From a virus (lineage: Duplodnaviria; Heunggongvirae; Uroviricota; Caudoviricetes), in IMG/VR virus record IMGVR_UViG_3300035678_000001: a stretch of DNA of 64,000 nt, one strand, 5' to 3'. The notes beneath the pieces were generated by a model, which made no database searches, was not told the origin of the DNA, and saw nothing but the letters and a program-made list of their open reading frames with translations. This document shows, one piece after another, positions 7,998 to 63,862 of the stretch. The translations under genes and the position numbers were made by a program. Within the stretch, counting starts at the first letter, position 1. Each line of letters begins with the position of its first letter.

Positions 7998-8217
7998 CGG
8001 GCGGCTCCACCGGGATGACGATGATGTGGGCCTCCATCGCCTGCTGCAACTGCTTGCGGATGCGCTCCACGAAGGACACCCGGTGGTCGCGCCACTCCAT
8101 CAGGCAGATGCCGTGGAAGACCGCGCTGGGGCAGTCGTCGTGACCGCAGGGCGCCTCGAAGACGGGGCTGTGCTCGATGATGTTGTCGCAGCGCATACAG
8201 ATCGGTCGGTCCTGCAC
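7990..8217 (-). CDS. Small Zn-finger protein (~75 aa)
   Basis: CMRC...CGHDDC motif. Track ORF trimmed to a GTG at 8217 (TAGTG overlap). Confidence 0.4.
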   Translation of the reverse strand: MQDRPICMRCDNIIEHSPVFEAPCGHDDCPSAVFHGICLMEWRDHRVSFVERIRKQLQQAMEAHIIVIPVEPPDA

Positions 8218-8492
8218 TACCCCTCCAACCGCTTGCCCAGCGCCGGGTACTTGGCGATCAGTGCCTGCTCTCGGCGCCACTTGAGCAAGTTCTTGGTGTA
8301 GACCGTGCCGTACATCAGACAGGTCAGCAGCAGGCCGTAGCCCTTGGTGACGATGGCGTACGCCGCCCACACGGGCTGCACAGCCAGTCCGACGCCCCAG
8401 CCGTACCAGCGACCCTTCCCGGCCAGCACGAGGCCGGTACAGCCCGCAGCAGCCAGCACCAGGGACAGCCAGAACGCGAGGTTGAAGGTCAC
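8217..8492 (-). CDS. Small membrane protein, 91 aa, 2-3 predicted TM helices
   Basis: Hydrophobic segments FWLSLVLAAAGCTGLVLAG and AVQPVWAAYAIV. GTG start with GTGA overlap at 8489..8492. Confidence 0.45.
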   Translation of the reverse strand: MTFNLAFWLSLVLAAAGCTGLVLAGKGRWYGWGVGLAVQPVWAAYAIVTKGYGLLLTCLMYGTVYTKNLLKWRREQALIAKYPALGKRLEG

Positions 8493-40893: not shown

Positions 40894-42393
40894 CTAGACG
40901 ACGCCCCAGTTGGCGCCATCAGCAACCACCCGTAGAACCGCATACTGGGCCAAGGTGCGGGAGGCGTCTCCGTCAATGGTTCCGACCAGTGGGGTCACCG
41001 TCAGAGCGGTCGAGTCGAGGTTCTTGATGGTGAACATCCGACCCGTGCGTCCAACCGGCGTGGGGAGAGTGGCGGTCAGGGTGACACCGGAGAAGAAGAC
41101 CACCGAGTCGGCGTTGGTCAGCGTGTAATCAGCCGTCTTGGTGGAGAACGGCTGGGACACTTCCGGCCCGTACTTCTCGGTCGCCAACTCGGTGATCGCA
41201 GCCTGCACATCGGTGGCGGCGACCGACCCTGCTGGTGTGTAGGAGATGGCCGAGGCGTCATGAGCGTCGGTGGTGTCCGCGAGGTGGTCTGACAGCGCCG
41301 TGGCGACCGCCTGGACATCGCTCTCGACTTCCACGACGGCTGCTTGCACGTCAGTGGCCGCGATGGTCCCCACAGGCGCGAAGGAGATCGAGGCAGCCAC
41401 CAGGGCGGCGCCATCGAACAGCAGGCCATCCTGATCCACCCCGACCGTGTGGGCGCCGTCGTCGGCGGCGTACAGCCGCACACGGGTGGCATGGCCGGTC
41501 GGGCTGGACGGCACGACCTCCACCGTGTCGGTCTTGACGACCGTCTCATCAGCGGTGGCCGCAACCGCCCCTGCACCGAGAGCGATGGCCCGAGCAGCCG
41601 TGGCCTGGGCCGCGAAGCCGACCGCTGTGGCGTCTGCCGAAGCCGCGTGCGCTCCGGCACCGAGGGCGGTGGCGCGCAGAGCGGTCGCCAGAGCGACCTC
41701 ACCGACCGCCGTGGTGTCGTTGGCACTGGCCTGGGTCTGGGCACCGAGCGCCGTGGCTCGGAGCCCGCTGGCTACCGAGTCCGAGCCGACCGCGCTGGCT
41801 TGGTTGGCGCTGGCCGCAGCAGCCTGGCCGACCGCTGTGGAGCCGGTGCCACCCGCCGAAGCGGACTCACCCAGAGCCGTGGCTTGGAAGGTCGAGGCGT
41901 CAGCGTTGTGACCCAGCGCAGTGCTCTGGTCGCTCTCTGCGATGGCACCGGGACCGACCTGGGTGGACTCGAAGCCGTCTCCGGCATGGGTCGAGTCGGC
42001 ACCACCGGCTCCGGTGGACGCGATGATCTGGTCGAGGGCGTCCTGCACGTTCTGTGCGGTGATCGACACGCTCGGTGACGTGTAGGGCGTCTGCGCGGCG
42101 GTCTGGAAGTCGCCCTCGGCGGGCTCAAGGACATCCACGTCCTCGAACACGACCTCGGCGTTGCTGCCCAGCGTGACGCCCAGCGTGACGCGCTGCGGGG
42201 TGTCGGTGTAGATCGAGACGACGCCCGTCAGACTCGTGAACGGGTTCGAGAGCGGCGTGCCACCCGCGCTAGACCCGTAGAACGGGTCGGCCAGTGGGGT
42301 GTTCGTCCCAGGACGCAGGACACGGATCGAGGCGCCAGCGAGCGTGTTGCCCGCGTTGTCGGTGATCGTCTTGAGCAGGTGAGCCCGCGCCAT
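40894..42393 (-). CDS. Tail fibre-like protein 1 (499 aa) with a shared N-terminal anchor and ~9 tandem ATALG/TAVG repeats
   Basis: N-terminus MARAHLLKTITDNAGNTLAGASIRVLRPGTNTPLADPFY is paralogous to the N-termini of the 43981..45297 and 45811..47520 genes. Ala/Gly/Thr-rich 13-15-aa repeats. Preceded by the late leader motif. Confidence 0.6.
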   Translation of the reverse strand: MARAHLLKTITDNAGNTLAGASIRVLRPGTNTPLADPFYGSSAGGTPLSNPFTSLTGVVSIYTDTPQRVTLGVTLGSNAEVVFEDVDVLEPAEGDFQTAAQTPYTSPSVSITAQNVQDALDQIIASTGAGGADSTHAGDGFESTQVGPGAIAESDQSTALGHNADASTFQATALGESASAGGTGSTAVGQAAAASANQASAVGSDSVASGLRATALGAQTQASANDTTAVGEVALATALRATALGAGAHAASADATAVGFAAQATAARAIALGAGAVAATADETVVKTDTVEVVPSSPTGHATRVRLYAADDGAHTVGVDQDGLLFDGAALVAASISFAPVGTIAATDVQAAVVEVESDVQAVATALSDHLADTTDAHDASAISYTPAGSVAATDVQAAITELATEKYGPEVSQPFSTKTADYTLTNADSVVFFSGVTLTATLPTPVGRTGRMFTIKNLDSTALTVTPLVGTIDGDASRTLAQYAVLRVVADGANWGVV

Positions 42394-45358: not shown

Positions 45359-45814
45359 CTAGAAGGACCGCCACGCCGCAGTGACCGCCCGTGCAACTGG
45401 ACCTTGGCCGAAAGCGGTGGTGGCGTAGACCTCGATGATGAAGACGCTGTACGGCGCATCCGCCCCGGTGTCGGTGTGGGTGTCCATCAAGGTGCCGTAG
45501 CCGGTGTGCTGGTCCTGTGGCCGTGAAGCGGGTGTCAGTTGAGGGAAGTCAGTGGCCGGTCCCGTGCGGGTGGCGACCAGCGAACCTTTGGTCCAGTTGT
45601 CTGGATCGCTGAACGGGAAGTGGCCCGCGCTCGCGTTGTAGACGCTGCTGGTGTAGGAGATGACCGGCGGGCCATACGGCGGATCCCATCCCCAGACCCG
45701 TCGCGCTGCGTCGTTGCTGTCCAACGTCTGGCTTGCGTCGAGGTTGCGGATGATGCCTGGGGCCACGTTCGGCACCCCGGCAGGAACGACGGGAACACAG
45801 ACGACGTACGTCAC
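45359..45814 (-). CDS. Hypothetical tail-associated protein, ~151 aa
   Basis: GTG at 45814 forms a GTGA overlap with the stop of the 569-aa gene (confirmed). Confidence 0.45.
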   Translation of the reverse strand: MTYVVCVPVVPAGVPNVAPGIIRNLDASQTLDSNDAARRVWGWDPPYGPPVISYTSSVYNASAGHFPFSDPDNWTKGSLVATRTGPATDFPQLTPASRPQDQHTGYGTLMDTHTDTGADAPYSVFIIEVYATTAFGQGPVARAVTAAWRSF

Positions 45815-47520
45815 GCGAAGTCCACGCTCATGAGCAGGTCGGAGCCGGGGGTTGTCGAGCCGACCTGGGAGCAGTTGAACTTGAGGATGTCGCCCTTGGT
45901 GCAGGCCACAGAGATCGGGTCGAGCACCCCCAGGCTGACGCCATCGGGGATCGTGATGGTGCCGACATCGTTGGCGTAGGCACCGTTGTTCCACCGCTCG
46001 ACGGTGACGATCATGTCGGCACCGACAGGCGGGGTGTCGAGCCTGCCGACGATGTTGATGGCGTTGGAGTTGCGGGGCACTCGCAGCCCCGGCTTGATGA
46101 GGCTCGGGCTGGTCGAGATGTCACCAGCAGCGATGCCTTCGAGGGTGTAGGCCGTCGCGTTGCCCGTGGTCAGGTAGGCAAAGGTCATGTTGAGGTTGGT
46201 GAGCGTCCCACCCGAGAAGTTGCTCGACCCCGCGAGCAGGTCGTAGCCCGTCTCATCCACAGACAAGATCGCAGTGCCGGTGAACGACAGGGAGGTCAGG
46301 TGGGCGTCCCGGTCGGAGTCGAACTTGATGAGGACACCCACCCCGGCGACGTACGCCTGGGCGTAGCCGTTGTTCCCTGCGGGCCAAGGGAAGTTGTCCC
46401 ACGACCCCGAGACGGTGACCAGCCACGTCCCCGCACCGAGAGCGATGGTCGAGTTGCGGACGCTGTGCGGCACCTCGCCCACGGAGTAGAAGTCGTTCGG
46501 GTTGCTGACAGCCGGGTACGGACTCTGATCTGCGGGCACGGGGCCACCGCTGCACGCGAGATAGCCCGCAGCGCCTGCGACACCAGCGCCGCCTCCCCCA
46601 CCGCCACCGCCAGCAGCCGGGTAGGGCTGACCGTCGAAGGTCAGGCCGGTGGCTGTCACCCCGATGACGCGCTTGGTGCCGTCCACAGTGTCGTGCAGAG
46701 CCAAGGTCGTCGGAGCACCAGACGTGCTGGACGGCACGACCTCCAACTGATCGACCTTGATGACGCCGTGGTCGTCCTCGTCGGTGTGTGCCCCGCCACC
46801 GATGACGATGGAGCGCGAGGTCGGCGTGAAGTCACTCTTGCGAGCGGTGGCCTGCGCACCGATGACGATGTTGTTGCGGATGGTGTTGATGTCGGAGGGG
46901 GCAGGCACCCCCGTGCGGGTGTTGTAGCCGATGGCGATGTCGTACTTGCCGTTGGCCTGACCACCTCGGGTGAGCACCACGGAGTAGGGGCCGGTAGCGA
47001 GCGCCTGTTCACCGAGTGCCGTTGCGCCGATGGCCTGCGCTCGGGCGGTATGTCCGACAGCGGTCGTACCGAAGCCGCTCGCATCAGCCGCAGTGCCGAG
47101 TGCGGTGTTGTTGCCACCGTTGCCGATGCCGCTGTTTCCGATGACCAGCGCCTCGTCGCCAGCGGCATCGACTGGGCGAGCGGGGTTGATGTCACCACCG
47201 ATCACGGTGTCCGTCCCGGTGCCAGCCCGGAAGCCCGCGCCGCCGACCGCGCCCACGTCGATGTCCTCGAAGAAGAACTCCGGGTTGCTGCCGTGGGTCA
47301 CGCCGATGGTGACTCGCCGGGGCGTGTCGAGGTAGATGCTGATGACGCCGTTGGCGAAGACGTGCGGCATCGGGGTGACGGTCGTCGTCGTGTTCGTCAG
47401 GAAGACCTGATCGGTGATCGGGGTCGTTGTCCCAGGCTCGTACAGGGCCACCGAGCAGCCGGTAAGCACGTTGCCCTGTACGTCGAGGACCGGACGCAGA
47501 AGGTGTGCGCGGTCGGTCAT
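45811..47520 (-). CDS. Tail fibre-like protein 3 (569 aa), shared N-terminal anchor, Gly-rich ALG repeats, Gly run GGGGGGGAG
   Basis: MTDRAHLLRPVLDVQGNVLTGCSVALYEPGTTTPITDQVF. Repeats NTALGTAADASGFGTTAVGHTARAQAIGATALG. Confidence 0.6.
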   Translation of the reverse strand: MTDRAHLLRPVLDVQGNVLTGCSVALYEPGTTTPITDQVFLTNTTTTVTPMPHVFANGVISIYLDTPRRVTIGVTHGSNPEFFFEDIDVGAVGGAGFRAGTGTDTVIGGDINPARPVDAAGDEALVIGNSGIGNGGNNTALGTAADASGFGTTAVGHTARAQAIGATALGEQALATGPYSVVLTRGGQANGKYDIAIGYNTRTGVPAPSDINTIRNNIVIGAQATARKSDFTPTSRSIVIGGGAHTDEDDHGVIKVDQLEVVPSSTSGAPTTLALHDTVDGTKRVIGVTATGLTFDGQPYPAAGGGGGGGGAGVAGAAGYLACSGGPVPADQSPYPAVSNPNDFYSVGEVPHSVRNSTIALGAGTWLVTVSGSWDNFPWPAGNNGYAQAYVAGVGVLIKFDSDRDAHLTSLSFTGTAILSVDETGYDLLAGSSNFSGGTLTNLNMTFAYLTTGNATAYTLEGIAAGDISTSPSLIKPGLRVPRNSNAINIVGRLDTPPVGADMIVTVERWNNGAYANDVGTITIPDGVSLGVLDPISVACTKGDILKFNCSQVGSTTPGSDLLMSVDFA

Positions 47521-51314: not shown

Positions 51315-52828
51315 GAGTGGCTCACCGAGACAACACGGTTCTGGCCGTACGGCGACACGAGCAGCACCCCGTCGTTGGCGAAGCGGGAGGCGAGCACCTG
51401 GCGCGGAGTCAGCAGCGCCCGCTCGCCCGAGTAGGCGACCTGCTGGCCGTCGTAGTACGTGACGACCTCGTAGTCCTGGCCGAGCAGCACAGCCTCATCC
51501 GGTCCCTCGGCGTACGTCTTCACAGCCACGATCTCGGGGCTGTAGGACACCGTGGCGCCCTGGCTCTCGGAGAAGACCGGACGGGGCACGACATGGGGCT
51601 GCGTCGGCGGTGTGGGGTCCAGTGGGCTGGTCGGGTAGACGTTGGAGGAGATGGACACCTTCGGGGTGACCTTGGCCTCGACATCCCAGAAGGTGCTGTC
51701 GGCGGCGACCGCCGCGAACGGAATCGGGTTGTTGATCTCGACGCCGGACAGGTCGATGGTCGCGAGCGTCCCGGCAGGCTTGAGCACCTGCAAGACCCGG
51801 ATGGCCGACCACTCCTCGGCAGCCCGCTGACGAGTGCTGATCTCGGCCTGCTTGTAGGGCTTGACGATGAACTCTGCCCGCGAGCCGGTGCGCCCGATGA
51901 ACGCCTGCGACTCGTCCGGGTACATGATCTGGAACCACGAGTGGTGCTCGGCGTCCGCGAAGGTCGGGAAGTCATCGTGGACGCGGGTCCAGTCGCGGAT
52001 GACGCGCCCGTCGCTGTCGGTCGGAGCCGCCGCGATGTCGGACCAGGCGTGGCCCTCCAAGTTGGACCAGTGCGGGTAGAGCGCCTCGACCTGGGTCCAC
52101 GTGCGCGTCGAGCCAGCCGGGGTCGCGCCAGGCCGAGCCGACAGGGTGTCGTAGGGGATCAACTCCATCGCGCCCCACACGCCGTAGTCGTGGGTGAGGT
52201 CGTCGTACGACCGGCCACCGAAGATCGGCGGGATGAAGTTGCCCTGGCCGTCGAGCAGCCGCCAGATCTCGTACACGTCGCACTCGCACCCGAAGATCGC
52301 CTCGGCTGCCGTCTTGATCCCGGCCACCGTCGCGCCCAGCGGGATGGCCCGAGCCAGGTGCATGACCCGCTCGCGGTAGCGGGTGTCAGCGGCGTGCTGG
52401 GTGTCCCACTCGTCGCTGGTGAGGTTCGAGGTGAGCGGGTTGGCTTCGAGCCCCTCCTCCGGGTTGCGGTGCGCCGAGAACAGCGCGCCGTAGAAGGAGT
52501 CGAGGTCGTAGAAGTGCGTGCTCGTCATGGCCGACTGCAAGCGGTAGAGCAGGGTCCGCTTGCGCAACTGGCCCATGCCGGAGTCCCCGAGCAACGCCTT
52601 GAGGAAGCGCGTCAGGTGGCTCTGCGGGCGCAGGTCGTACAACTCCTCGAAGAAGTGGTCGAGGCGCCGGGCAACCTGGCGGTCCGGGACGAGCAGGTTG
52701 GTGCCGGTCAGCAGGCCGTCCGGGTTGGGTGCCGAGACGGTGATCTGGGCCGAGAAGATCGAGGACTGGGCGTAGCCCGATGCCGGGTCGTAGATCGAGG
52801 TGGCCTGGCTGAACGTCTGGGTGCTCAT
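51311..52828 (-). CDS. Baseplate-associated protein, 505 aa
   Basis: Internal ATG at 52828 (MSTQTFSQ...) forms an ATGA overlap with the baseplate J stop (confirmed). The N-terminal 180 residues of the track ORF are rejected. Confidence 0.55.
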   Translation of the reverse strand: MSTQTFSQATSIYDPASGYAQSSIFSAQITVSAPNPDGLLTGTNLLVPDRQVARRLDHFFEELYDLRPQSHLTRFLKALLGDSGMGQLRKRTLLYRLQSAMTSTHFYDLDSFYGALFSAHRNPEEGLEANPLTSNLTSDEWDTQHAADTRYRERVMHLARAIPLGATVAGIKTAAEAIFGCECDVYEIWRLLDGQGNFIPPIFGGRSYDDLTHDYGVWGAMELIPYDTLSARPGATPAGSTRTWTQVEALYPHWSNLEGHAWSDIAAAPTDSDGRVIRDWTRVHDDFPTFADAEHHSWFQIMYPDESQAFIGRTGSRAEFIVKPYKQAEISTRQRAAEEWSAIRVLQVLKPAGTLATIDLSGVEINNPIPFAAVAADSTFWDVEAKVTPKVSISSNVYPTSPLDPTPPTQPHVVPRPVFSESQGATVSYSPEIVAVKTYAEGPDEAVLLGQDYEVVTYYDGQQVAYSGERALLTPRQVLASRFANDGVLLVSPYGQNRVVSVSHS

Positions 52829-54630
52829 CCGGCGACCCCGAAGGAGTTCTGCGCCTTGATGCGCGGGGTGTTCACCGTGGCGCCGCCGCCCACCGAGTCG
52901 AAGACGGGGATCTCGTTGTCCGCGAACGGGATGTCGATGGCGCGGCCCTCGCTGTTGGCGTAGGTGTGCGTCACCACGCCCTTGACGACCCGCTGGATCG
53001 CGTAGTTGGCCGAGTCGTCGGTCTGGTGCAGGAAGCGCACGTTGTCTACGCCCTGCACGTTGTGGACGAACTGCAACACGTCGCTGACCTGCAAGACGGT
53101 GCCGAAGACGAAGTTGACGAGCAGGGCGGCGATGGCCTCGCGGATCTGCTCGTTCACCGCGTTCTGGCTGTAGCCCGGCGAGTAGACGACAGCGAGGTTG
53201 AAGCGCAGGCCGATCTGCTTGGCCTGGTGGACCTTGGTGTCGGTGCCCATCAGACGGGCTGCCTCGATGTTGCTCTGCACCGAGAGCACCACGTCGTTGT
53301 AGGTGTAGTCGCCGCTGTCCCCGATGACGAAGATCGCTCCGCTGGGCGGCAGGTTGGTCGCCTTCCACTCCAAGCCGAACAGCGAGGTGGGGGTGTAGCC
53401 GAAGGACGAGTCCTCGTGAACGACCCAGTAGTCGGTGCCGAGGTGGTAGGTCGGCTGCCCCTCGACCGAGAGGGTGGGCGGCACGGACAGGATCGGGCCG
53501 TACGCCAGCGGGATGAAGACGTTGTTGACCGCAGGGGCGGTGTCGTCCTCACGGACGAAGCGCAGTGACGAGTAGAGGTCGCCGTACGCCGGGCTGAACC
53601 GCTTGTTCTGCGAGAAGATCACCGACTGCACGGCCTCGCGGGCGCGCTGCCCGGCCACGTACACGTCGATGCGGTTGAAGATGTTCTGGCTCGGGTCGTT
53701 GCGGCTGGCCTTGGGCTGATACTCGAAGTCGAGGTCCATGATGGCGCCCTCGAAGGGGTGGATCTCGCCGTCCGCGCTCGGGTACGAGGTGTTGAGCGCC
53801 TGCACGAACGGCGGGTTGGCTCCGGCGTCGAACTTGTAGTCGTGGCCGGACAGCAGCACGTCACCCGCGTCGATGTTCGGACCGAAGACGGCGCCCTCGG
53901 GGTAGATGAACGCCGCCCCGGCCAGGGTGCTGACTGCCGAGCCTCCGACCACCTGCACCTGCTCGCGGTGGCGCTTGGAGGAGCCGATGACGTTGGCGTT
54001 GAACACGTTGTCGTCGTCGTTGGCGATGCCGAGGTACATCTGCTCGACACCAGCCAGGTTGCGGAACGCCGTACGACGCCAGCGGGCGCGCAGGGCGGTG
54101 TCGGACTCCTGCGGGGTGCCGCCCGTGATCGGCTGGATGTTGGTCACGTCGGTGATGCCCTGCACGGGCGTCAGGAGGTTGGTCAGCAGGCCCGCTCCGA
54201 TGTTGCCGGAGACGCCGCCCAGGACCGCCATGACCGGCACCGAGATGGACCGCACGCCGTTGTCCATGAACGCCGGGACGACCGTGACGACGGTGACCGT
54301 GCCGGTGCTGACCTGGGTGTTGGTCGGGATGATGAGCGGGATCGTCAGGTCGCCTTCGCCCCGCGAGAAGATCACCGCGCCGCTGGCCCGCCGGGCGCCG
54401 TAGCGCACCATGCCGAACAGGGCCACGAACTCATCGAGGTCCGCCTCGGACTTGGTGTCGATGTCGTACTGGTAGGTGATGAGGTGCCGGTCGATGTACG
54501 CCTCGGCGGCAGACTCGCCCACCACGTCGAGGATCTTGCGGGTGGTCGTGCCAGTGGAGGTGTCGAGGTCAGGGTCGGTGACGGCGAGCGTCTGCCGCAT
54601 CTGGGAGACGACGCTGTTCAAGTCGGGCAT
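52825..54630 (-). CDS. Baseplate J-like protein (gp6/gpJ/XkdT family), 601 aa
   Basis: Size, the N-terminal region (...ADLDEFVALFGMVRYGARRASGAVIFSR...) and its position directly after a gp25/W-like gene. Call by recall. Confidence 0.65.
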   Translation of the reverse strand: MPDLNSVVSQMRQTLAVTDPDLDTSTGTTTRKILDVVGESAAEAYIDRHLITYQYDIDTKSEADLDEFVALFGMVRYGARRASGAVIFSRGEGDLTIPLIIPTNTQVSTGTVTVVTVVPAFMDNGVRSISVPVMAVLGGVSGNIGAGLLTNLLTPVQGITDVTNIQPITGGTPQESDTALRARWRRTAFRNLAGVEQMYLGIANDDDNVFNANVIGSSKRHREQVQVVGGSAVSTLAGAAFIYPEGAVFGPNIDAGDVLLSGHDYKFDAGANPPFVQALNTSYPSADGEIHPFEGAIMDLDFEYQPKASRNDPSQNIFNRIDVYVAGQRAREAVQSVIFSQNKRFSPAYGDLYSSLRFVREDDTAPAVNNVFIPLAYGPILSVPPTLSVEGQPTYHLGTDYWVVHEDSSFGYTPTSLFGLEWKATNLPPSGAIFVIGDSGDYTYNDVVLSVQSNIEAARLMGTDTKVHQAKQIGLRFNLAVVYSPGYSQNAVNEQIREAIAALLVNFVFGTVLQVSDVLQFVHNVQGVDNVRFLHQTDDSANYAIQRVVKGVVTHTYANSEGRAIDIPFADNEIPVFDSVGGGATVNTPRIKAQNSFGVAG

Positions 54631-55058
54631 CAGGCACCTACCGTCAGAGGGATCGTCACGCGCTGGTTGGCCTGCGTGACGAGGACGACGAACACGGTCA
54701 CCGTGTCGAAGTTGATCTGGACCCGGATGTCCTGAATGGCCCGCACCACGTCGCTGGTGTCGTACCGGGAGGCCCGCTGGGCGGTGAAGTCACCAAGCAC
54801 CTGGGCGCGCTGGACGAGGACGTAGTTCTGCAAGACCCGGTTGGCCTCGCTCTCCACCAGCAGCGCCACCTCCTCGGTCAGGGTCTGGCCGATGTAGGAC
54901 CGGATGATCGAGCCCCAGTCCCGGTGGAAGCGGTCGTTGCCGAGCGGCTCGATCAGAGCACACCGAAGATCCTGGGTGATGCGAGCCGCCCCAGAGATCG
55001 TCTTGTGCCCCGCAGGCGTAACCACGAGGTCACCGTCTGCGAGCGCCAACTGCTTCAT
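54630..55058 (-). CDS. gp25/GPW-like baseplate wedge protein, 142 aa
   Basis: IEPLGNDRFHRDWGS matches the GPW_gp25 signature (GERVMRPDFGS). Preceded by the late leader motif. Confidence 0.6.
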   Translation of the reverse strand: MKQLALADGDLVVTPAGHKTISGAARITQDLRCALIEPLGNDRFHRDWGSIIRSYIGQTLTEEVALLVESEANRVLQNYVLVQRAQVLGDFTAQRASRYDTSDVVRAIQDIRVQINFDTVTVFVVLVTQANQRVTIPLTVGA

Positions 55059-55094: not shown

Positions 55095-58000
55095 TCAGAC
55101 AGGCTGCGGGGTGCGTCGGGGCCAGAACTGCCCCTCCCCGGTGGGCATGGGCTGGAAGAAGAACCGGAGCAGGTTGCCGATCCGGTCGTCTGGGATCCCG
55201 GTGAACGCGATCATGGTCGCCAGGCCGTGCGGGAGCAGGTTCGCCGCAAACCGGGCGCTCGCGTTCATCACGATGCGCTCCGTGGAGCGGCCTCGGGAGA
55301 TCGACACCAGCGCCTTCGGCCCGGCCAGATCGAAGGTGCCGACACCGCCCGAGGTGCCTCCCGTGTCCCGTCCGTCCCCGGTGAACCGCTGGCCTCGGGT
55401 CATCCAGCGCAGGATGTAGGCGACCTGCATGTGGGCCGTCATGTGACCGACGCCAGCCGGGGACCAGACGACCTCGACCGGCTGGGCGGTGATCGTGACG
55501 CCATAGTCGAAGCGCCCGAACAGGTCCGTGAAGTGCCCGGTCGGCAGGTAGTGCTTGTACGAGCCTGCGTCGGCCCGCATAGAGGCCCGCCGCTCGATCC
55601 CGTTCGGGACCAGCGAGCCGTGGCCGACGCCGTTGGAGTGGTGGTGCATGATCGGCACGTGGTCGATCTCGACCCGGACGTTGGACATGCCGTTGGACCC
55701 GTTGGGGATCAGCAGCGGCGCGATCAACGGGAAGTGCTGCTCGTAGAAGAACTGGCCCGAGCCCCACTTCATGTAGACGCCGCTGGGCCGGTCGATGTCC
55801 TTCATGTGGCCGACGCCGTGGCTGGTCGCGTAGAGCAGACCGGGGTCGATGGAGAAGCCACCAATGCCATGCGAGGTGATGAGCCCAGCCTCGAAGTGGA
55901 CCGGGCCGTGCTGGTAGCCGAGCATGTGACCGACGCCGTGCGGACGGATCTCCATGTCTCGGCGGTCGGGCAGGTAGTTGGTCGGCCAGCCACCCACGCC
56001 GTGTGAGACGCCAGAGATCCGCTGGGGCGCACCCAGCGTCGGAGAGAAGCCCCCGATGCCGTCAGCCTCGAACTCCCCGAACTTGAGGAAGACCACCGTC
56101 GAGCGACCAGCAGCCAGCGCCGCGAGATAGACCTTGCTCGACAGGTAGCCGTAGCACTGGGCTCCCGCTGTGAAGCGCCCGTTGTTGAACGAGTTGGTCC
56201 GGGCGTACATGTAGTCGGGCGAGAACTGGCGAGCGAACACACCCTGCGGCCCGGTCGGGCGACTGGGGAACCCGAGGGCAGGGTCGCCATCAGCGAGGTA
56301 GCCAGGGAAGGCCCGGCAGCCCGCGTTGGCGATGGCGACCATCTCGTACGGAAAGGTGAAGGTCGAACGGCCAGCCATCGTTGAGGGGCCACCCGAGTAG
56401 GGCGGGAAGCCGTCGCGGTGGCTCTCGGTCGGATGGTTGTTGGCGAAGCCCACCCGCGATGAGAGGTAGATGACCACGCCGGTCATCTCGTTGTCCTTGC
56501 GGTACGGGTTCAGCCGTGGGTCGTACTGGTGGTAGTAGGACTGGAACCGCCAGATCGAACCGGCCCGTACGACGAAGGCGAAGGGCGGCTTGTCCATCTC
56601 GGTGCCGCGAGCCGAGCCGTTGCTGACCAGCGCCAGCAACTTGGCGTTGTCGCGCATCGAACCGACGCCGTTGCTGGTCGCAGCGATGCGCAGAGTGCCG
56701 GTCGTGCGGATGTCGTTGACGTGACCGACGCCAGCCATCGGGACGGCGAACATCAGCGCCGGGCCGAGGGACCAGTGCGCGACACCGCGCATGGTGATGT
56801 TCGGCATCAGGAAGGTGCCGGACAGGTAGGAGTAGCCGCCACCCCGTCCCGCGCTGGTGCTGATGACGTGCCACGGGGAGCCCATGTAGATGGAGCCGCC
56901 AGCGCGTCCTGGGCTGGTGCCAGCGAAGTAGATCCGACTCGACAGGTAGACGTTGACGTGCGCCTGTGCGTACGCCGTCGAGGTGACGTGGAAGGGCGCC
57001 CCGAGGTACGCCGCCACCGTGGCTCGGCCAGCCGAGATCGAAGCGACTCGGAAGGGCGAGGACAGGTAGTTCTTGGTGCAGGCTGCACGGCCCGCAGAGG
57101 TAAACGAGATGCGCTGCGGGGTCGAGAGGTAGGCCAGGCCACCAGCGCGTCCTGCCGAGGTGCTGGTGACGTGCCAGGGCGAGCCCAGGTAGTTGCGGTT
57201 GAAGCCCGCCACGCCAGCCGGGTTGATGACCAGCCTCACCGGAGTCGCCATGTAGTTTCGGCTGTAGGCGGCGATGCCGTTGGAGGTCATCGTGAAGCGG
57301 ATCGGCGTGCCGAGGTAGTCCACCATCGTGGCGCGACCGGCAGCGGTGCTGCTGACGGCATACGTCTCGGTCTGGCGGAAGGTGTCGGCTGCGACACCAT
57401 CGCTGCGAGCAGCCATGTGGGTTGTAGAGCCAGGGCTCATCGTGACCGTCGATGCACCGACCGCACCGAGAGTCAGCCCCTGCTCCGCACCCGGCCCCTC
57501 CTTGGTAGCCAGCCACACGTCGTTGCTCTGGTACGGCGGCTTCGACGGGTAGATGACCAGGCTGTTGGCCCGCAGGATGACGGTCAGGAAGTTCTTCGAG
57601 CAGCCAGCCGCACCAGCAGAGATCTGGTTGCGAGGCTTGATGGTGACGCCCAACGACAAGATCGGAGAGGCGACACCGACAGGCCGGGTCTGAACGGTGT
57701 AGCGGTTGCCCATCGTCATGGAGACGGAGGCGGCTCCGGCAGGCGTGCTGGCAAGCGAGTTCGGACCCTGCGGGGTGGTGAGGGTGATGTCCTGTGGCTG
57801 CGGGGCACTGGGGACCACCACGATGTCGCCCTGGCGGCTGAGTACCGACATGCCGAAGGTGACGGTGCTCTTGCCTGCCGCTGTGGAGGCGAGGGTCCGC
57901 AACGGAGGCGGGTCGGTATTCGTCCGGTCGCTATCGCCATAGCCAACAGCGCCGTACGCCCTGGTGCCGTATCCACCAGACACCACCGTCGTCACATCAG

Positions 58001-58613
58001 GACCCGTGGCGCTGACACCGGAGACGCGGTGGTTTCCACTCGCGCCACCAGTGGCAGCGGTGAACCCGACGTACACGATGTCGGGTGCGGTGCATCCAGT
58101 CCAGTCGCCCAGGTCCACGCCGTCGCGGATGCGCTTGACGGTGTAGGTGTTCGGCGCGGTCTTGGTGAACGTCAGCGAGAAGGCGTGTGCGCCCGTGACA
58201 TACGAGTTCGGGTGGTACTCAGACTTCTGCGTCGTCTGGCCGCTGGGGTAGGGGTGCGAGGTCCAGTAGAAGCCGGGGCTGCCAGGGTCGTAGGTAGCCA
58301 TGCGGAACGCAGAGCCGTAGATGCCATCGGCAGCCAGGGACCCACCGCCAGTCAGCGACATGCCGCTGCTGGGAACCCCGGAAGCCGGGTCCCAGAGGAA
58401 CAGCGTGCCGCCGTCAGCCGAACCGTCGTACGTGGTCGTGAAGTTGATGGTCAGGCCGTCGAGGATGAGCGACCTAGCCGTGTAGAAGGCCGCCCCGGAC
58501 TGACTGGCAAGGGCGCTGGTCAGTCGAACGGCTGCTGCCTCGAAGACAGCGTTGCCGAAGACAGACCAGCCAGCAGCGTCGGTCTGTGGGTTGCCGAGGA
58601 AGGTGGTGGTCAT
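55095..58613 (-). CDS. Giant tail/baseplate protein (1172 aa): N-terminal L-type-lectin/ConA-like domain plus two families of tandem ~20-aa repeats
   Basis: N-terminus AAFYTARSLILDGLTINFTTTYDGSADGGTLFLWD is lectin-like. Repeat family 1 is NYLxSPxxVxSTSAGRAxx (12 or more copies). Repeat family 2 is SHGVGHM / SNGVGHG / PAGVGHM. Sits where a hub/spike gene is expected, upstream of gp25/W. Confidence 0.6.
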   Translation of the reverse strand: MTTTFLGNPQTDAAGWSVFGNAVFEAAAVRLTSALASQSGAAFYTARSLILDGLTINFTTTYDGSADGGTLFLWDPASGVPSSGMSLTGGGSLAADGIYGSAFRMATYDPGSPGFYWTSHPYPSGQTTQKSEYHPNSYVTGAHAFSLTFTKTAPNTYTVKRIRDGVDLGDWTGCTAPDIVYVGFTAATGGASGNHRVSGVSATGPDVTTVVSGGYGTRAYGAVGYGDSDRTNTDPPPLRTLASTAAGKSTVTFGMSVLSRQGDIVVVPSAPQPQDITLTTPQGPNSLASTPAGAASVSMTMGNRYTVQTRPVGVASPILSLGVTIKPRNQISAGAAGCSKNFLTVILRANSLVIYPSKPPYQSNDVWLATKEGPGAEQGLTLGAVGASTVTMSPGSTTHMAARSDGVAADTFRQTETYAVSSTAAGRATMVDYLGTPIRFTMTSNGIAAYSRNYMATPVRLVINPAGVAGFNRNYLGSPWHVTSTSAGRAGGLAYLSTPQRISFTSAGRAACTKNYLSSPFRVASISAGRATVAAYLGAPFHVTSTAYAQAHVNVYLSSRIYFAGTSPGRAGGSIYMGSPWHVISTSAGRGGGYSYLSGTFLMPNITMRGVAHWSLGPALMFAVPMAGVGHVNDIRTTGTLRIAATSNGVGSMRDNAKLLALVSNGSARGTEMDKPPFAFVVRAGSIWRFQSYYHQYDPRLNPYRKDNEMTGVVIYLSSRVGFANNHPTESHRDGFPPYSGGPSTMAGRSTFTFPYEMVAIANAGCRAFPGYLADGDPALGFPSRPTGPQGVFARQFSPDYMYARTNSFNNGRFTAGAQCYGYLSSKVYLAALAAGRSTVVFLKFGEFEADGIGGFSPTLGAPQRISGVSHGVGGWPTNYLPDRRDMEIRPHGVGHMLGYQHGPVHFEAGLITSHGIGGFSIDPGLLYATSHGVGHMKDIDRPSGVYMKWGSGQFFYEQHFPLIAPLLIPNGSNGMSNVRVEIDHVPIMHHHSNGVGHGSLVPNGIERRASMRADAGSYKHYLPTGHFTDLFGRFDYGVTITAQPVEVVWSPAGVGHMTAHMQVAYILRWMTRGQRFTGDGRDTGGTSGGVGTFDLAGPKALVSISRGRSTERIVMNASARFAANLLPHGLATMIAFTGIPDDRIGNLLRFFFQPMPTGEGQFWPRRTPQPV

Positions 58614-58689: not shown

Positions 58690-59169
58690 CTAGTGCGGGT
58701 CCGGTGGACCGAGGTTCTTGGCCCAGACCTCGAAGATCGGGTCCGATGCGAATAGAGATCTCGTGCCTGCTGCACCAACCTTGTTGAACAGTCGAACAGT
58801 CACCAGGCCCGCTGTGATGTCGCCAGCGACCAGAGTGAGCATCGGCGCTGCACCAATGGCTGCAAGCCGGGAGGCTTCGCCATACCAGCCACCAACGCCG
58901 TTCGGCTTCTGCACCGCCGTCTTGCTGCTGAACCATGTCACTGCCGCAGCCGAGACGAGCGTGGCGGCGTCGAGGTTTCCCGAGACGGCTGCATCGCTAT
59001 GCCACACGGCGTTGATGCCCACTTGGATGACATCTCCCGCCTGGGCTTCCAAGGTCAGATCGAGCGAGGTATCGAGAGCGGCATAGGAAGTGTTGGACAA
59101 CGAGAAGTTGCCCGAGGATCGGGTAGCGAACTTGAAGTTGCGCGAGCGCATGTGCCGGGGGTAGCCCAT
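58690..59169 (-). CDS. Hypothetical tail-associated protein, 159 aa
   Basis: Track ORF with non-biased composition. Confidence 0.5.
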   Translation of the reverse strand: MGYPRHMRSRNFKFATRSSGNFSLSNTSYAALDTSLDLTLEAQAGDVIQVGINAVWHSDAAVSGNLDAATLVSAAAVTWFSSKTAVQKPNGVGGWYGEASRLAAIGAAPMLTLVAGDITAGLVTVRLFNKVGAAGTRSLFASDPIFEVWAKNLGPPDPH

Positions 59170-59909
59170 CAGACACCTACCAGTCGGCCAGCGAAGCGCC
59201 GAGCGCCGATGGTGACGCCGCTGCTGGTGTCAACGTAGGTGAAGAAGCGCATCTGGTCCCCTGCAACACACTTGCCCATCCGGCGAAAGGTCAGCGTGGC
59301 TCGGTTGGTCGATGCACCTGAGGCGATGGTGCGCCAGTGGAAGTTGGCGCTGTCTACGTTGGCCGAGTCGATACCTACGCCGATGTTGACGCTCGTGATC
59401 GTGTTGTCCGCGTTCGGACGCCACGACCCCTCGAACTCGTAGAGGCCGGTCTGCGGGACAGTGTAAATGCCCGTCGTCGGGTTGTAAGCGTTGCTCGGAT
59501 CAGTGACCTCGTTGTCGCAGATCACGGTGTTGAACGCCTGTCCAGTCACACCGACAGTGCCAACCCCGGTGGCCTCGAAGTACGTGGTCTGCGCTACCGG
59601 CAGCAGGTCAAGGGTGGTCGGGCCATGCACCCAGGGCACGTCCTGGTTGTGCTGGCGCTTCGTCGTCCCCTCTTGCTCCCGAAGGATCGTCGCCGTGACA
59701 GCACCAGGCGTGTGGGCGGTGATGTACGCGATCTCCGGCTCACCGTAAAGGCCATCCGGGTCGAAGGTGATCGGGAAGTGCTGAGTGCTTCCGATGCCCA
59801 CCACCGCGACCAGCGCGTTGGACTGGAAGGTGGTGGCCGTTGCCGTGAGCGGGTTGTCTTCGACCAACCCACCGATGAAGTTCTGACGGACCCGCAGTTC
59901 GTTCGCCAT
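59169..59909 (-). CDS. C1q/TNF-like jelly-roll domain protein, 246 aa (putative receptor-binding or decoration protein)
   Basis: C-terminus YNPTTGIYTVPQTGLYEFEGSW...FHW...AGDQMRFFTYVD has a C1q-like strand pattern. Confidence 0.5.
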   Translation of the reverse strand: MANELRVRQNFIGGLVEDNPLTATATTFQSNALVAVVGIGSTQHFPITFDPDGLYGEPEIAYITAHTPGAVTATILREQEGTTKRQHNQDVPWVHGPTTLDLLPVAQTTYFEATGVGTVGVTGQAFNTVICDNEVTDPSNAYNPTTGIYTVPQTGLYEFEGSWRPNADNTITSVNIGVGIDSANVDSANFHWRTIASGASTNRATLTFRRMGKCVAGDQMRFFTYVDTSSGVTIGARRFAGRLVGV

Positions 59910-60259
59910 CAGGCAGGCACCATCCCTCGGTTGCTGGTGCCGTGGACCTGCGTCGAACCTCCGGCGAGGGAGTACGCCACGGTGAAGTAGAGGTAGGGGT
60001 CGGTGGCGTCTCGGATGAAGGAGTAGGTCCCGCCGACAGCACTCGTCGTGGTGGCGACCTTGCGAGCATCTACCTGCCGATAGAGGTCCACGGTGGCTCC
60101 CACGACGGGCGCTCCGTTGGTGTCGTAGACGTGCCCGGAGATCGCCTTGGTCGCTCCGCTAATGGTCGTCCCGTAGTCGCCGCCGAGAACGGTGACGGCC
60201 TGGTTCCTGACCTGACGAGAAGCCAGAACCTGCGAGGCAGCGAGGACGAGGGCAGCCAT
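59909..60259 (-). CDS. Small prealbumin-like (CarboxypepD_reg-like) domain protein with an N-terminal hydrophobic segment, 116 aa
   Basis: ISGHVYDTNGAPVVGATVDLYRQVDARKVATTTSAVGGTYSF. The ATG at 60259 forms an ATGA overlap with the stop of paralogue C. Confidence 0.5.
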   Translation of the reverse strand: MAALVLAASQVLASRQVRNQAVTVLGGDYGTTISGATKAISGHVYDTNGAPVVGATVDLYRQVDARKVATTTSAVGGTYSFIRDATDPYLYFTVAYSLAGGSTQVHGTSNRGMVPA

Positions 60260-61263
60260 TACTCGTACCTCATCAGCAGACCACCAGTGGTCGAGCCGTT
60301 GTTCGTCGTGAAGTACGAGGTGTTGGGTGCTCCACCGACCTGGCAGCACGACAGGTAGGTGTGCTGTGCGCCGTACATCGGAACCGAGATCGTCTGCCCA
60401 GCAGTGAAGTCACCGTTCCAGCAGGCCAGCAGTCCGAGCATCGGACCTTCGACCCCCGCGCCGGTCTGCACTGGGATCTGGTAGGTGATGACGTTGGCTC
60501 CGACGACACCCGAGCCCGACATGGATCCGGGGTAAGCGCCAGGGATGAAGCCGTCAGCGTTGTGGACCTGACTGGTGGTGAACGACAGGATCTGGAAGCC
60601 CGACTGCTGACCCTGCGACGAGGCGTAGATGCCGTACCAACTGCCGAAGGCGAAGACCACCCCGTCGCCGTTGTAGGTGCCGTCCAAGTTGCGGGTGCGC
60701 TCGATGGAGAAGACGGCAGGCACGGGGATGCGTGTCGCGCTGCCGGAGAGGTTGCTGGTGGCGATGGCTACGTCAATGCCGAGGGCGGCGTTGATGCTCG
60801 ACCCGTCACCGCAGAAGTAGGAGTGCGTGTCGGTGCGAGAGACACCGCTGTCGGTAATGCCGCTGCCGGTTGCGGAGATGGCAAGCATCGAGCGACGGGT
60901 GCCGACGAGCCCGGTCAGCGTTCCAGCACCGTTGGTGCCAGTGCCGACCGTGATCCACATGGTCTGGCCCCACACGCCAGCGCGGGTGCCGAGGCCACCC
61001 ACCATGTAGCCGTACTCGACCTTGATGAAGACCGGGCGACTGGCCTGCAAGGCATCCGAGAAGCGATAGATCTCGTAGCCGATGCTGGGGGTCGAGACGG
61101 TAGGGAACGAGGTCAGTGCGAGCGTGGCCCAGTTGATCTGACCCGTGTCGGCGGTCTGGACCAGACCAACGGCCTGCAAGCCCGCTGCGATGCTTGCGCC
61201 CCAGGCGCGGTAGGCCGCGTCAGTGGTGACATCCCACGAGACGACGGATGCAGATGTGGTCAT
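60259..61263 (-). CDS. Paralogue C of a three-member tandem family (334 aa)
   Basis: Shares LVQTADTGQINW, GYEIYRF.D.LQA.RP.FIKVEYG, GTGT.GAG.LTG, CGDGSSI, ERTRN.DGT.NGDGVVF and a C-terminal LLMRYE with paralogues A and B. Confidence 0.6.
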   Translation of the reverse strand: MTTSASVVSWDVTTDAAYRAWGASIAAGLQAVGLVQTADTGQINWATLALTSFPTVSTPSIGYEIYRFSDALQASRPVFIKVEYGYMVGGLGTRAGVWGQTMWITVGTGTNGAGTLTGLVGTRRSMLAISATGSGITDSGVSRTDTHSYFCGDGSSINAALGIDVAIATSNLSGSATRIPVPAVFSIERTRNLDGTYNGDGVVFAFGSWYGIYASSQGQQSGFQILSFTTSQVHNADGFIPGAYPGSMSGSGVVGANVITYQIPVQTGAGVEGPMLGLLACWNGDFTAGQTISVPMYGAQHTYLSCCQVGGAPNTSYFTTNNGSTTGGLLMRYE

Positions 61264-61652
61264 GAAGGCACCAGTCCTCGGTCACTGACCCCGTGGATCT
61301 GGGGGTTGGTCGCTGTGGTGTACGAGATGATGTAGTAGGCCAGCGAGTCGAGAGAGTCTCGCGGGAAGATGTAGTGGCCGTTGATGTCGGCGGTGGTCTG
61401 GGCCACCACCTTGTCGTCGTACTGGCGCACCAACTTCACGATGGAGTTCGGCACGACGACGCCTGCGATGCCATAGATGGTCCCAGCGATGGTCTTGCTG
61501 CCGACGTAGATCGGCAGGTCACCTGGGTTCACAGCAGCCAGGTTCGGACGCGGCGACGTGACTGTGCGGCTCTTGCTGGTGAGCGGCGTGGGCGACAACG
61601 TGACCGTGCGCGTCCGGGTAGCAAGCGGCGTCTGCTGGGTGTTGTACGCCAT
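61260..61652 (-). CDS. Small prealbumin-like (CarboxypepD_reg-like) domain protein, 130 aa
   Basis: GTIYGIAGVVVPNSIVKLVRQYDDKVVAQTTADINGHYIF. The ATG at 61652 forms an ATGA overlap with the stop of paralogue B (confirmed). Confidence 0.5.
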   Translation of the reverse strand: MAYNTQQTPLATRTRTVTLSPTPLTSKSRTVTSPRPNLAAVNPGDLPIYVGSKTIAGTIYGIAGVVVPNSIVKLVRQYDDKVVAQTTADINGHYIFPRDSLDSLAYYIISYTTATNPQIHGVSDRGLVPS

Positions 61653-62596
61653 CACTCGAACCTCATCAGCAGACTGCACCAGTTACGAGCACCAGAGTTG
61701 TTCTCGGTGGAGGTTCCTGGCATCGAGCCACACACACCAGGGAGGGCGAGGTAGGTGCGAGCAGCGCCGTTCACGACAAGGGAGACGGTCTGGTAGTTGT
61801 TGATCCCGCCCTGCCAGCCCAGCACGGTGCAAGCCTGGGCTTCGGGCTTGGGCATGGCGACGAGGAACGGATAAGCAACGATGGTCGTGCCATCGACGCT
61901 GGGTGCGTTGTAGTCGTTCGAGGGGTACGCGATGGGCCAGTAGAAGTTGTTGCCTACCACCGCGTTGTTGATGAACGAGATGTAGTTGTAGGTGCTGAAA
62001 TAGACGCCATCCTGGCGGCTCGCCAGGTGCATCCCGAAGACCACACCGTCCCCGTTAGGCGTGTTGTCTGCGTTGCGAGTCCGCTCGACAAACCAGAACA
62101 ACACGCCGGGGTTGGCGTTGGGGTTGATGTTCGTGTAGGGCGGCAGCGCGATGGCGATGCTCGACCCGTCACCAAAGAAGTAAGCAGGCTGGGCGTAGGG
62201 GGAGTTGTTGGGGTTGCCCAGTGCCGACGACAGCGAAGCCATGTCTGAACGGGCAGTCAACTGCAACCCAGTGAGGTTTCCAGCGCCGTCCGTGCCGGTG
62301 CCGACGAACAGAGCGAAGCGAGGATAGGTCGTCCCGTTGTTCGTGGTGCCGTAGATGACCTTGATGAAGATGGGCCGGGTGGCTTGCAGGGTGTCGTTGA
62401 AGCGCCAGATCTCGTAGCCGAAGGTCTGGGCACTCGAAGTCGCCGTGACCGTCGTGGTCGTCCAGTTGATCTGGCCGGTGTCTGCGGTCTGAACAAGGCC
62501 GATGCTCGACAGCGCCTGGGAGATCGCAGAGCCCCACGCCTTGATGAGCGCGTTGCTCGCGTTGCTCAACCGGATTGTCGTAGCGATGGCGGTCAT
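61652..62596 (-). CDS. Paralogue B (314 aa)
   Basis: Same conserved blocks. C-terminal LLMRFE. Confidence 0.6.
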   Translation of the reverse strand: MTAIATTIRLSNASNALIKAWGSAISQALSSIGLVQTADTGQINWTTTTVTATSSAQTFGYEIWRFNDTLQATRPIFIKVIYGTTNNGTTYPRFALFVGTGTDGAGNLTGLQLTARSDMASLSSALGNPNNSPYAQPAYFFGDGSSIAIALPPYTNINPNANPGVLFWFVERTRNADNTPNGDGVVFGMHLASRQDGVYFSTYNYISFINNAVVGNNFYWPIAYPSNDYNAPSVDGTTIVAYPFLVAMPKPEAQACTVLGWQGGINNYQTVSLVVNGAARTYLALPGVCGSMPGTSTENNSGARNWCSLLMRFE

Positions 62597-63547
62597 CTAC
62601 TCCCACCTCAACAGGGCACAGTGGTTCGTCAGCCCGGTGGGCGTGAACTTGATCGGGATGTACGTGTGCGCTGACCCCAGCACGGTGGTGCTTATCGGAA
62701 CTGCCTGGGTGAAGTCAGCATTGAAACCGACGAGCATCGCGTGAACGAAGGTCTGCTTCCCTGCCTGCACCAGCATGGGGAAGACCGTGATGTCCGCGCC
62801 ATCGACTGCGTTTCCCCAGTCGTGCCCAGGTGCGAGGGCTACCGAGTAGCGGGTGCGCTCATAGGCCACCTGCCGGTCGAAGATGAGGTAGTTCTCGCAC
62901 CAGACCGTGGTGGGCTGACTGCTGGTGCTGCCGAACTGCGCGTCCGCACGCGATGCGTTGAAATAGCCCTGGGTGTATCCGACATCGCCTCCGTACGACG
63001 TGCGCCACATCACGAGGCCATCCCCGTTGATGGTGCCGTCAGCGTTGCGAGTGCGGTCGATCACAAAGAAGATCTGTGGTGCGCTGTTGCTACCGGACCC
63101 ACCGTTGGCGTAGCCGAGCAGCATCATCGCGTAGGTGCCATCGCCTGCCCAGATCGAGGGCTGCACAGTGGAGGTGATGAAGCCCGCGTACAGGGCTCGG
63201 CGCGTCGTGAGCAGCCCGGTGATGTTCCCCGCGCCGTCTGTGGCGGTGCCTGCGGTGAACCACATGATCGGACAGTTCGCGCCGATGTACGACGAGCCCG
63301 AGCCGTACTCCACCTTGATGAAGACCGGCTTCGTTGCCTGCAACGAGTCGTTCATCCGCCAGATCTCGTAGCCGTTGTTGGAGTTGCTACCCCCGGTGTA
63401 CGAAATCGTCGTCGCGTCGATCTGACCTGTGTCTCCGGTCTTCACCAACCCGATAGAGGAGAAGGCAGCAGACATGGCTGCAACCCACGCACGGAGAGCC
63501 GCCGTGGATGTGATGTTCAGGTTGATCGACTGCGCGACGGTGGTCAT
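62597..63547 (-). CDS. Paralogue A (316 aa)
   Basis: Same conserved blocks. C-terminal LLRWE. Confidence 0.6.
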   Translation of the reverse strand: MTTVAQSINLNITSTAALRAWVAAMSAAFSSIGLVKTGDTGQIDATTISYTGGSNSNNGYEIWRMNDSLQATKPVFIKVEYGSGSSYIGANCPIMWFTAGTATDGAGNITGLLTTRRALYAGFITSTVQPSIWAGDGTYAMMLLGYANGGSGSNSAPQIFFVIDRTRNADGTINGDGLVMWRTSYGGDVGYTQGYFNASRADAQFGSTSSQPTTVWCENYLIFDRQVAYERTRYSVALAPGHDWGNAVDGADITVFPMLVQAGKQTFVHAMLVGFNADFTQAVPISTTVLGSAHTYIPIKFTPTGLTNHCALLRWE

Positions 63548-63550
63548 GGA

Positions 63551-63862
63551 CTAGGCCAGATCCCCGGCAACCTCGGTGATGAGGGCGGCGTTGTCGGCGT
63601 CGTCGTGGTTCGGGATGCAGACCCGGCCCTTGGACGACTCCATGATGAGGACGGCGGGGTGCTTGGTGATGCTGACGACACCACCGGCCTCGTCCTCGGA
63701 GACGTTCTGCTCGATCAGCGCGGTCACGCCGTCCTTGGTCAGCACAGCGAGCACCTTGTGCGGGTAGTTCTCGGACAGACCGAGGTCGTCAGAGAGCGTC
63801 TGGAACTCGGTGGTCTTCTGCTCCTTGAAGCCGAGGGTCTTGAGGGTGTCAACGGCGGTCAT
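63551..63862 (-). CDS. Hypothetical protein, 103 aa
   Basis: Track ORF. ATGA overlap with the upstream partial gene. Confidence 0.5.
   Translation of the reverse strand: MTAVDTLKTLGFKEQKTTEFQTLSDDLGLSENYPHKVLAVLTKDGVTALIEQNVSEDEAGGVVSITKHPAVLIMESSKGRVCIPNHDDADNAALITEVAGDLA

Follow-up and report, generated by a model that had tools for sequence, protein, structure and literature searches.

No part of a phage genome is harder to predict than host recognition, and fibres made of stacked globular paralogues, not trimeric rods, have been solved for one phage only. Tandem paralogous globular proteins that form fibres have been known since 2024. In Pseudomonas phage JBD30, gp47 and gp48 have similar folds and associate as heterodimers, with three heterodimers in each of three bent lateral fibres (PMC11445458). 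The distal tail and upper baseplate proteins serve as their attachment points, and the type IV pilus is what the fibres bind (PMC11445458). The authors proposed a hydrolase role for gp47, with a nitrilase-superfamily assignment, and the paper gives no enzyme assignment for gp48 (PMC11445458). Adjacent fibre proteins of the JBD30 type, again two in number, have been reported from a second phage group (PMC11946847). The locus described here is an array of five genes at positions 59909-63547 of a 64,000-nucleotide (nt) stretch, referred to as the window, of the viral record IMGVR_UViG_3300035678_000001. It consists of three paralogues, parA, parB and parC, and two small genes, mini1 and mini2. 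The phage that carries it is an actinobacterial soil-type myophage, distantly related to the Bixzunavirus group.

It is held with moderate confidence that the three paralogues are co-assembled globular subunits of a baseplate or fibre appendage that contacts the host, with the mini proteins as accessory subunits. This reading is based on a fold match, a location among baseplate genes, a habitual position after fibre genes and a loop that appears to accept additional domains. A model of parB was built in AlphaFold2 with a 120-sequence alignment, giving a predicted local distance difference test score (pLDDT) of 86.5 and a predicted template modelling score (pTM) of 0.89. The only solved structures with this fold are JBD30 gp47 and gp48, with which it is shared over most of the chain. 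These are chains c and S of PDB entry 8RK3 (318 and 307 amino acids (aa), respectively), assigned by length and gene order. Foldseek searches of predicted viral structures (BFVD) located the fold in uncharacterised proteins of Mendera, Atu_ph07 (two proteins), MAR10 and G. The original prediction, made from the letters of the window, did not recognise the family, and neither sheath, tube nor any other well-known family emerged here: the paralogues gave nothing significant in Pfam or PHROG scans and only a chance match of 20 residues in a profile search of PDB sequences. A blastn search of the region against 50,697 phage records gave no match.

The paralogues belong to a large family, so far without annotation, of beta-rich phage proteins that consist of one domain and measure ~300 aa. 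The second and third copies are 42% and 39% identical to the first in a three-way alignment, and pairwise identities are 37-39% in a larger alignment. DNA repeats of 83 and 54 nt, in register and 70-76% identical, confirm the triplication. The five genes are considered real because the GC content at third codon positions (GC3) is 0.80-0.85 across all of them. The open reading frames (ORFs) and the alignment likewise bear out three paralogues with two interleaved mini genes, and every motif quoted in the original prediction is present. Identity is 60-88% within the conserved blocks (parB residues 33-48, 59-84, 98-112, 166-184 and 309-314) and 15-40% between them, which upholds the described alternation of conserved and divergent stretches. 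The cassette-like diversification suggested to explain it is not supported, as the blocks coincide with motifs conserved throughout the family and the variable parts are mainly its less conserved segments. Stretches modelled with low confidence and the less conserved C-terminal half account for much of the variable sequence. Taken as a whole, the original prediction was partly confirmed, in that its genes, motifs and interleaving stood and its signal peptide, ATGA overlaps and position in the tail module did not.

The size of this family is considerable. A database search returned 659 homologues, every one either without a name or labelled “hypothetical”, with lengths that almost always fall at 280-350 aa, and a profile search of 1.84 billion representatives gave 3,749 sequences at E<=0.001 and 2,592 at E<=1e-30. 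Among the 50,697 phage records, tblastn with parB, and likewise with the most typical member of the family, found Tunturi_5 alone. In reference genomes and metagenome-assembled genomes, the family resides on contigs assigned to Actinomycetota, Chloroflexota, Armatimonadota, Acidobacteriota, Pseudomonadota, Bacteroidota and Abditibacteriota, and it is also found in myophages and prophage-like regions. Neither Tonenili, a cluster C mycobacteriophage, nor the cyanophages bearing the stem domain described below gave a match to the family hidden Markov model (HMM). Of 79 IMG/VR loci, 53 hold one copy, 13 hold two, nine hold three and four hold four, so that tandem arrays of 2-4 copies occur in 26 of the 79; across the family, arrays reach five copies. 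One locus (L032:4330-8440), binned as “uncultured archaeon LFW-28”, has the stem domain followed by three family copies, and could be a mis-binned phage or a true archaeal virus.

Several members carry inserts of ~70-250 aa at a single loop, corresponding to parB residues 49-58 (loci L010, L030 and L032). That of L030 is similar to a sugar-binding domain of F5/8 type C (discoidin), with a score of E=2e-4 that falls short of the Pfam cut-off, and Pfam returned nothing for the 200-aa insert of L010 or for the inserts of L032. The F5/8-type-C-like sequence is an indirect hint that the family may bind host surfaces.

The contig is ~154 kb in length, and a further 10 kb of sequence upstream of the array was recovered (L002). 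The gene order leading to the array begins with a 765-aa protein at the tape-measure position of Tonenili, followed by proteins of 262, 66 and 318 aa, a 947-aa hub-like virion protein (phrog_2810), a 208-aa stem protein, a 142-aa Gp80-like protein and proteins of 104 and 103 aa. The array was originally placed at the head of the tail module; it lies instead within the baseplate block, after the tape-measure and hub-like genes and before those for the gp25-like and Baseplate_J proteins. The Baseplate_J protein shares ~30% identity with its counterparts in cluster C mycobacteriophages and in myophages of Gordonia and Rhodococcus. Tonenili has only two minor-tail genes in the slot that separates its 948-aa protein from the gp25-like gene, whereas twelve genes are found here. 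Because of this comparison, the array is regarded as a lineage-specific filling of a variable baseplate slot.

Throughout the family, a fibre gene is a frequent neighbour. A conserved domain of ~130 aa (phrog_15343-like, with “...RVRLY...TE” at the very end) closes the fibre-type protein, or stem protein, just upstream of the family gene in many of the phages. It is located directly upstream in Tunturi_5, L003 and L005-L007, and a few genes upstream in L010, L012 and the window’s own contig. Overall, the domain precedes the family gene in 6 of 17 genome loci and 29 of 73 viral loci. It also ends “tail fibre” or “tail fibre-like” proteins in two of the three cyanophage groups matched (S-BM3 and ACG-2014h), and a PDB sequence search with it returned nothing. 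Three further loci (L021, L022 and L024) have a different upstream C-terminal segment, which is similar among the three. It has been noted that tiny ORFs after the family gene or array often end in [TS]GQ[LVI][WYF]P[RL]. This tail motif has 14 matches among the 954,000 six-frame residues searched; 11 are no more than 6 residues from a stop codon, and 10 of those 11 are just after a family gene or array. ORFs with the motif are present in 11 of 76 viral loci, and the proteins match no known family. In L033, the mini sits exactly at the downstream position of this ORF.

The array is conserved in part among related loci. The “paralogue + mini” unit reported in the original prediction is real and recurs with a varying number of copies (L010-L013 and L033), and is seen in this phage lineage only; a mini is present in one of the 79 viral loci. 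parA groups with the first-position copies of L010, L011 and L012, with 47% identity between parA and the L011 copy. parB is 65% identical to its L011 orthologue and parC 25% identical to the L011 gene at the same position. The first and second copies are old paralogues whose order is kept across the lineage, and the third position is fast-changing, which leaves room for a possible role in host range. The age and fixed order of the first two positions, along with the translational coupling of the genes, favour a heteromer over independent heads.

Independent heads would mean that each paralogue is a separate receptor-binding tip adhesin on the same stem and that several specificities are displayed. 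This arrangement is considered unlikely, although it would agree with the rapid change of the third position relative to the second between close relatives, with a copy number of 1 to 4 across the viral loci, with the discoidin-like insert at the variable loop in one locus and with the separate duplication that gave rise to the four copies of Tunturi_5. The old, order-kept first and second copies and their tight coupling suggest non-redundant partners instead, and the JBD30 precedent is an obligate heterodimer.

The two mini proteins are less easily classified. mini2 matches PF13620 (CarboxypepD_reg) at E=1.7e-6 with 28.7 bits and mini1 scores 15.2 bits, both below the gathering cut-off of 32.3 bits. 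With mini2 as the query, the database contains five homologues including mini2 itself, and PF13620 is listed for mini2 and the other four. mini1 has weak CarboxypepD_reg and SdrD_B matches, and its match to phrog_3914 (tail-assembly chaperone) is non-significant (E=0.047). The mini model has a beta-sandwich core (pLDDT 70-86), with low confidence for a 35-residue N-terminus and the conserved C-terminal tail. mini1 is composed of a variable N-terminal arm, the beta-sandwich core and the tail Q[IV]HG.S[DN]RG.VP. The core and tail, but not the N-terminus, are shared among mini orthologues; those of mini1 occur in L010, L011 and L012. The minis do follow the second and third paralogues, as first described at ~120 aa, and their lengths are now set at 130 and 116 aa. 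The mechanical ORF list had 139 and 146 aa; the genes begin at internal ATGs that overlap the paralogue stops, and the “SADEVRV” shared upstream of these ATGs is an alternative frame of the LLMR[FY]E tails of the paralogues. A signal peptide had been suspected in one mini. It was rejected for mini2, where there is no basic n-region and the N-terminus is unconserved in orthologues and modelled as disordered.

If the paralogues are subunits of one appendage, translational coupling would yield the three in a fixed ratio. Assembled together, these globular subunits would make up an appendage of baseplate or fibre type, peripheral in position and in contact with the host surface. Binding among the subunits, or to the short stem protein with the conserved C-terminal domain, would be the task of the conserved N-terminal half and the ERTR block, and the variable loops and C-terminal half would face outward. 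The minis would be lineage-specific accessory subunits, encoded at the gene position of the tiny tail-motif protein, and are probably connectors or caps. From the fold and gene context, we infer that family members may be incorporated into the virion, form hetero-oligomers and contribute to adhesion.

A number of points weigh against this reading. The relation to JBD30 rests on one predicted model, and hhalign comparison with gp47 and gp48 gave a probability of ~0.1%, both for single sequences and for profiles of 120 versus 67 sequences. No paralogue matches phrog_687, while gp47 and gp48 do so at ~1e-100. The pair in JBD30 is located between the tape-measure and Dit genes, unlike the array, which lies between the hub-like gene and the gp25/J wedge genes. 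As 53 of the 79 loci have a single copy, a heteromer cannot be a general property of the family. Residues D39, Q42, D68, Q71 and R172 would also fit a ligand-binding or catalytic site. Fibre-assembly chaperones, too, are typically encoded immediately behind a fibre gene.

The polar residues bear on a second alternative, in which the paralogues are enzymes, either free or carried on the virion, for instance hydrolases that modify glycans or the cell wall, with the polar motif as the active site and the copies directed at different substrates. Across 120 diverse members, D39, T40, Q42, D68, Q71 and R172 are invariant and E62 and R65 nearly so, and the proposal made for gp47 by the JBD30 authors points in the same direction (PMC11445458). 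The published nitrilase assignment was not reproduced, however, as Pfam gave no family for JBD30 gp47; gp48 has no such assignment; and the conserved residues are equally compatible with a partner interface. An enzymatic role is judged quite improbable. Least probable of all is that the paralogues are non-structural chaperones that help the upstream fibre protein to assemble and are not part of the mature virion: the gene is immediately downstream of a fibre gene in many loci and a small extra gene often follows, but the paralogues match no known chaperone family in Pfam or PHROG, one fibre gene is followed by as many as 3-5 copies in the arrays, the sole proteins solved with the parB fold are structural parts of the virion, and fibre-assembly chaperones are, to our knowledge, usually smaller than the ~300 aa of the paralogues.

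The reading of the paralogues as co-assembled subunits may be extended, tentatively, to a widespread three-part fibre module of mainly uncultured phages. This would consist of a stem with the ~130-aa C-terminal domain, one to five paralogues as a bead-chain head, and a small docking protein. One loop of the paralogue would be a plug-in site for sugar-binding domains. The small protein would dock through its C-terminal tail, [TS]GQ[LVI][WYF]PR, and would have grown into the beta-sandwich mini in this lineage. If true, the module would be a general modular device for host recognition, tied to the JBD30 fibres by fold only.

All genes in this part of the window are on the minus strand (Table 1). 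Seven genes are packed from parA through to the 159-aa gene, with intergenic spacings of 0, -1, -4, -1, -1 and -1 nt. It was originally proposed that the five array genes are coupled by ATGA overlaps. A single ATGA junction is present, between mini1 and parC, the others being one-base overlaps of the TGATG/TAATG type or having zero spacing; mini1 overlaps parB through TGATG and parC through ATGA. The block is still tightly coupled, and no promoter or terminator that would split it was found above chance. The 27-nt junction between paralogue and mini is 93% identical between the two units, with flanking DNA at <=76%, and is the most conserved DNA between them. The junction may be doubly constrained as coding sequence, or it may mark a site of recombination. 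A programmed frameshift joining paralogue and mini was also considered and rejected, as the junction has no slippery sequence and both minis possess an ATG of their own, which overlaps the stop.

Table 1. Positions of the array genes, their neighbours and related features, with the composition of the related arrays (par, paralogue). Positions are those of the window unless a locus is named.
Feature	Position	Strand	Details
Small upstream gene	63551..63862	-	103 aa; 3-nt gap to parA
parA (paralogue A), first array copy	62597..63547	-	316 aa; GC3 0.83; family HMM E=2e-76
parB (paralogue B), copy modelled	61652..62596	-	314 aa; GC3 0.83
mini1	61260..61652	-	130 aa from true ATG at 61652
parC (paralogue C), third position	60259..61263	-	334 aa; GC3 0.83; family HMM E=5e-82
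mini2	59909..60259	-	116 aa from true ATG at 60259
C1q-like fibre protein	59169..59909	-	246 aa; one-base overlap with mini2
159-aa protein, end of coupled block	58690..59169	-	one-base overlap with C1q-like gene
Lectin-like repeat protein	55095..58613	-	1172 aa
gp25-like baseplate protein	54630..55058	-	142 aa
Baseplate_J protein	52825..54630	-	601 aa
DUF7297 protein	to 51311	-	505 aa
Paralogue-to-mini junction, 27 nt	61648..61674, repeated 60255..60281		encodes LLMR[FY]E-stop overlapping mini start
Stem C-terminal domain	L002:7358-7984; L001:11530-11961; L003:9328-9996; L005:9599-9997; L033:4366-4998		L002 site ~600 nt past window end
Tail-motif ORFs	L001:15390-15707; L003:10940-11125; L005:10953-11126; L006:10876-11019; L007:13802-14002; L020 ~7705; L027 ~7133		
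Insert-bearing members	L030:5965-7245; L010:7045-8484; L032:4740-5912, 6923-8440		large insertion at variable loop
Array composition, window			par-par-mini-par-mini
Array composition, L011			par(fragment)-par-mini-par-mini
Array composition, L013			par-mini-par-mini, then orthologues of C1q-like N-terminus, 159-aa protein and giant protein
Array composition, L010			par(200-aa insert)-par-mini-par-par
Array composition, L012			par-par-mini
Array composition, L033			stem protein-par-mini

Upstream of the array, the 103-aa protein has no family match in Pfam or PHROG scans; small genes of 99-104 aa are at the equivalent position in L010 and L012. The PHROG scan was likewise empty for the 104-aa neighbour and the small downstream proteins. 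The gene for the Gp80-like protein (L002:7995-8423, past the window end) is two small genes upstream of the array. Its product matches PF23140 “Podophage GP4 fiber I protein” at E=2e-30 and PDB 8jou_a at E=6e-10, and the gene is also present in L005, L010, L012 and a Sanguibacter prophage that carries the family.

The C1q-like and lectin-like genes said to follow the array were confirmed by ORFs and profile scans. The C1q-like protein matches phrog_35360 “tail fiber protein” (E=2.6e-8) and C1q (E=4e-4). Over its first 104 aa it has 68% identity to a 237-aa protein encoded at the equivalent position in L013, and no blastp alignment extended past residue 104. To judge from the sequence, this is the usual pattern of a conserved anchor and an exchanged receptor-binding head. 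The 159-aa protein has an orthologue at the same position in L013 (37% identical). In the 1172-aa protein, many repeats of ~24 aa (YL.SP....TS.GRA-like) can be seen by eye after a weak legume-lectin-like N-terminus. The L011 and L013 relatives share 34-37% identity with it, and the one in L013 has Laminin_G_3 domains instead. Two more fibre-like proteins, with YadA-head repeats (PF05658), are encoded at 45811-47520 and 40894-42393 of the window, downstream of a 1265-aa minor tail protein and ahead of a SNF2 helicase gene. A relative in L003 carries the family gene beside a protein of this kind.

The fold match ties the stacked-paralogue architecture to several thousand sequence clusters of a family without annotation, found on contigs assigned to at least seven bacterial phyla. 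If the reading is confirmed, thousands of “hypothetical proteins” beside fibre genes could be annotated as fibre subunits, and the variable loop would be a candidate site of host-range change. Tunturi_5 is a cultured phage carrying the family, in which the idea can be tested.

Compared with described systems, Tunturi_5 has the closest proteins. Its gp30-gp33 (“hypothetical proteins”) are true homologues, with 34% identity over the N-terminal half at the best of the four places. The four genes are in tandem, preceded immediately by the gene for a 1469-aa collagen/CBM5_12 “tail fiber protein” and followed by a small one whose product has the conserved C-terminal tail. They differ from the array in stemming from an independent duplication, with the four copies clustering at 42-60% identity, in having no mini beta-sandwich genes and in belonging to a 309-kb jumbo phage of an acidobacterial host (Tunturiibacter). 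A term search of the published description of Tunturi_5 found gp30-gp33 not mentioned. In relation to CarboxypepD_reg/transthyretin-like/CnaB domains (PF13620), the minis differ in that each is an independent protein, 116-130 aa long, whose N-terminal arm is variable and disordered and whose C-terminal tail is conserved. Lydia gp67 and gp68 (a Pseudomonas phage of the Mesyanzhinovviridae) are also adjacent fibre proteins of similar fold, for which heterodimer fibres were proposed (PMC11946847). The Lydia proteins were reported as structurally similar to those of JBD30, whereas the family here has no sequence link to gp47/gp48 and is likened to Lydia by description.

JBD30 gp47 and gp48 resemble the paralogues in size (318 and 307 aa, compared with 314-334 aa), in their single beta-rich domain and as adjacent diverged paralogues within a tail or baseplate gene block. 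Both have relatives with domains of the sugar-binding type: the gp47 family includes PA14 and F5/8-type-C members, and the F5/8-type-C-like insert occurs here. JBD30 is a siphophage with two copies and without interleaved small beta-sandwich genes, in contrast to the three copies and two minis of this myophage; its assembly and receptor are known, while the array is known from genes and a model. The suggestion of a receptor-binding or host-range cassette, or of a baseplate-distal decoration, gains support from the JBD30 fold, the variable baseplate slot, the neighbouring fibre genes and the change in copy number. The claim of a new class does not stand, as the kind has been described since 2024. 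What is new here is a family with no detectable sequence relation to that of JBD30 and far larger, with arrays of up to five copies and, in this lineage, a pairing of paralogues with minis.

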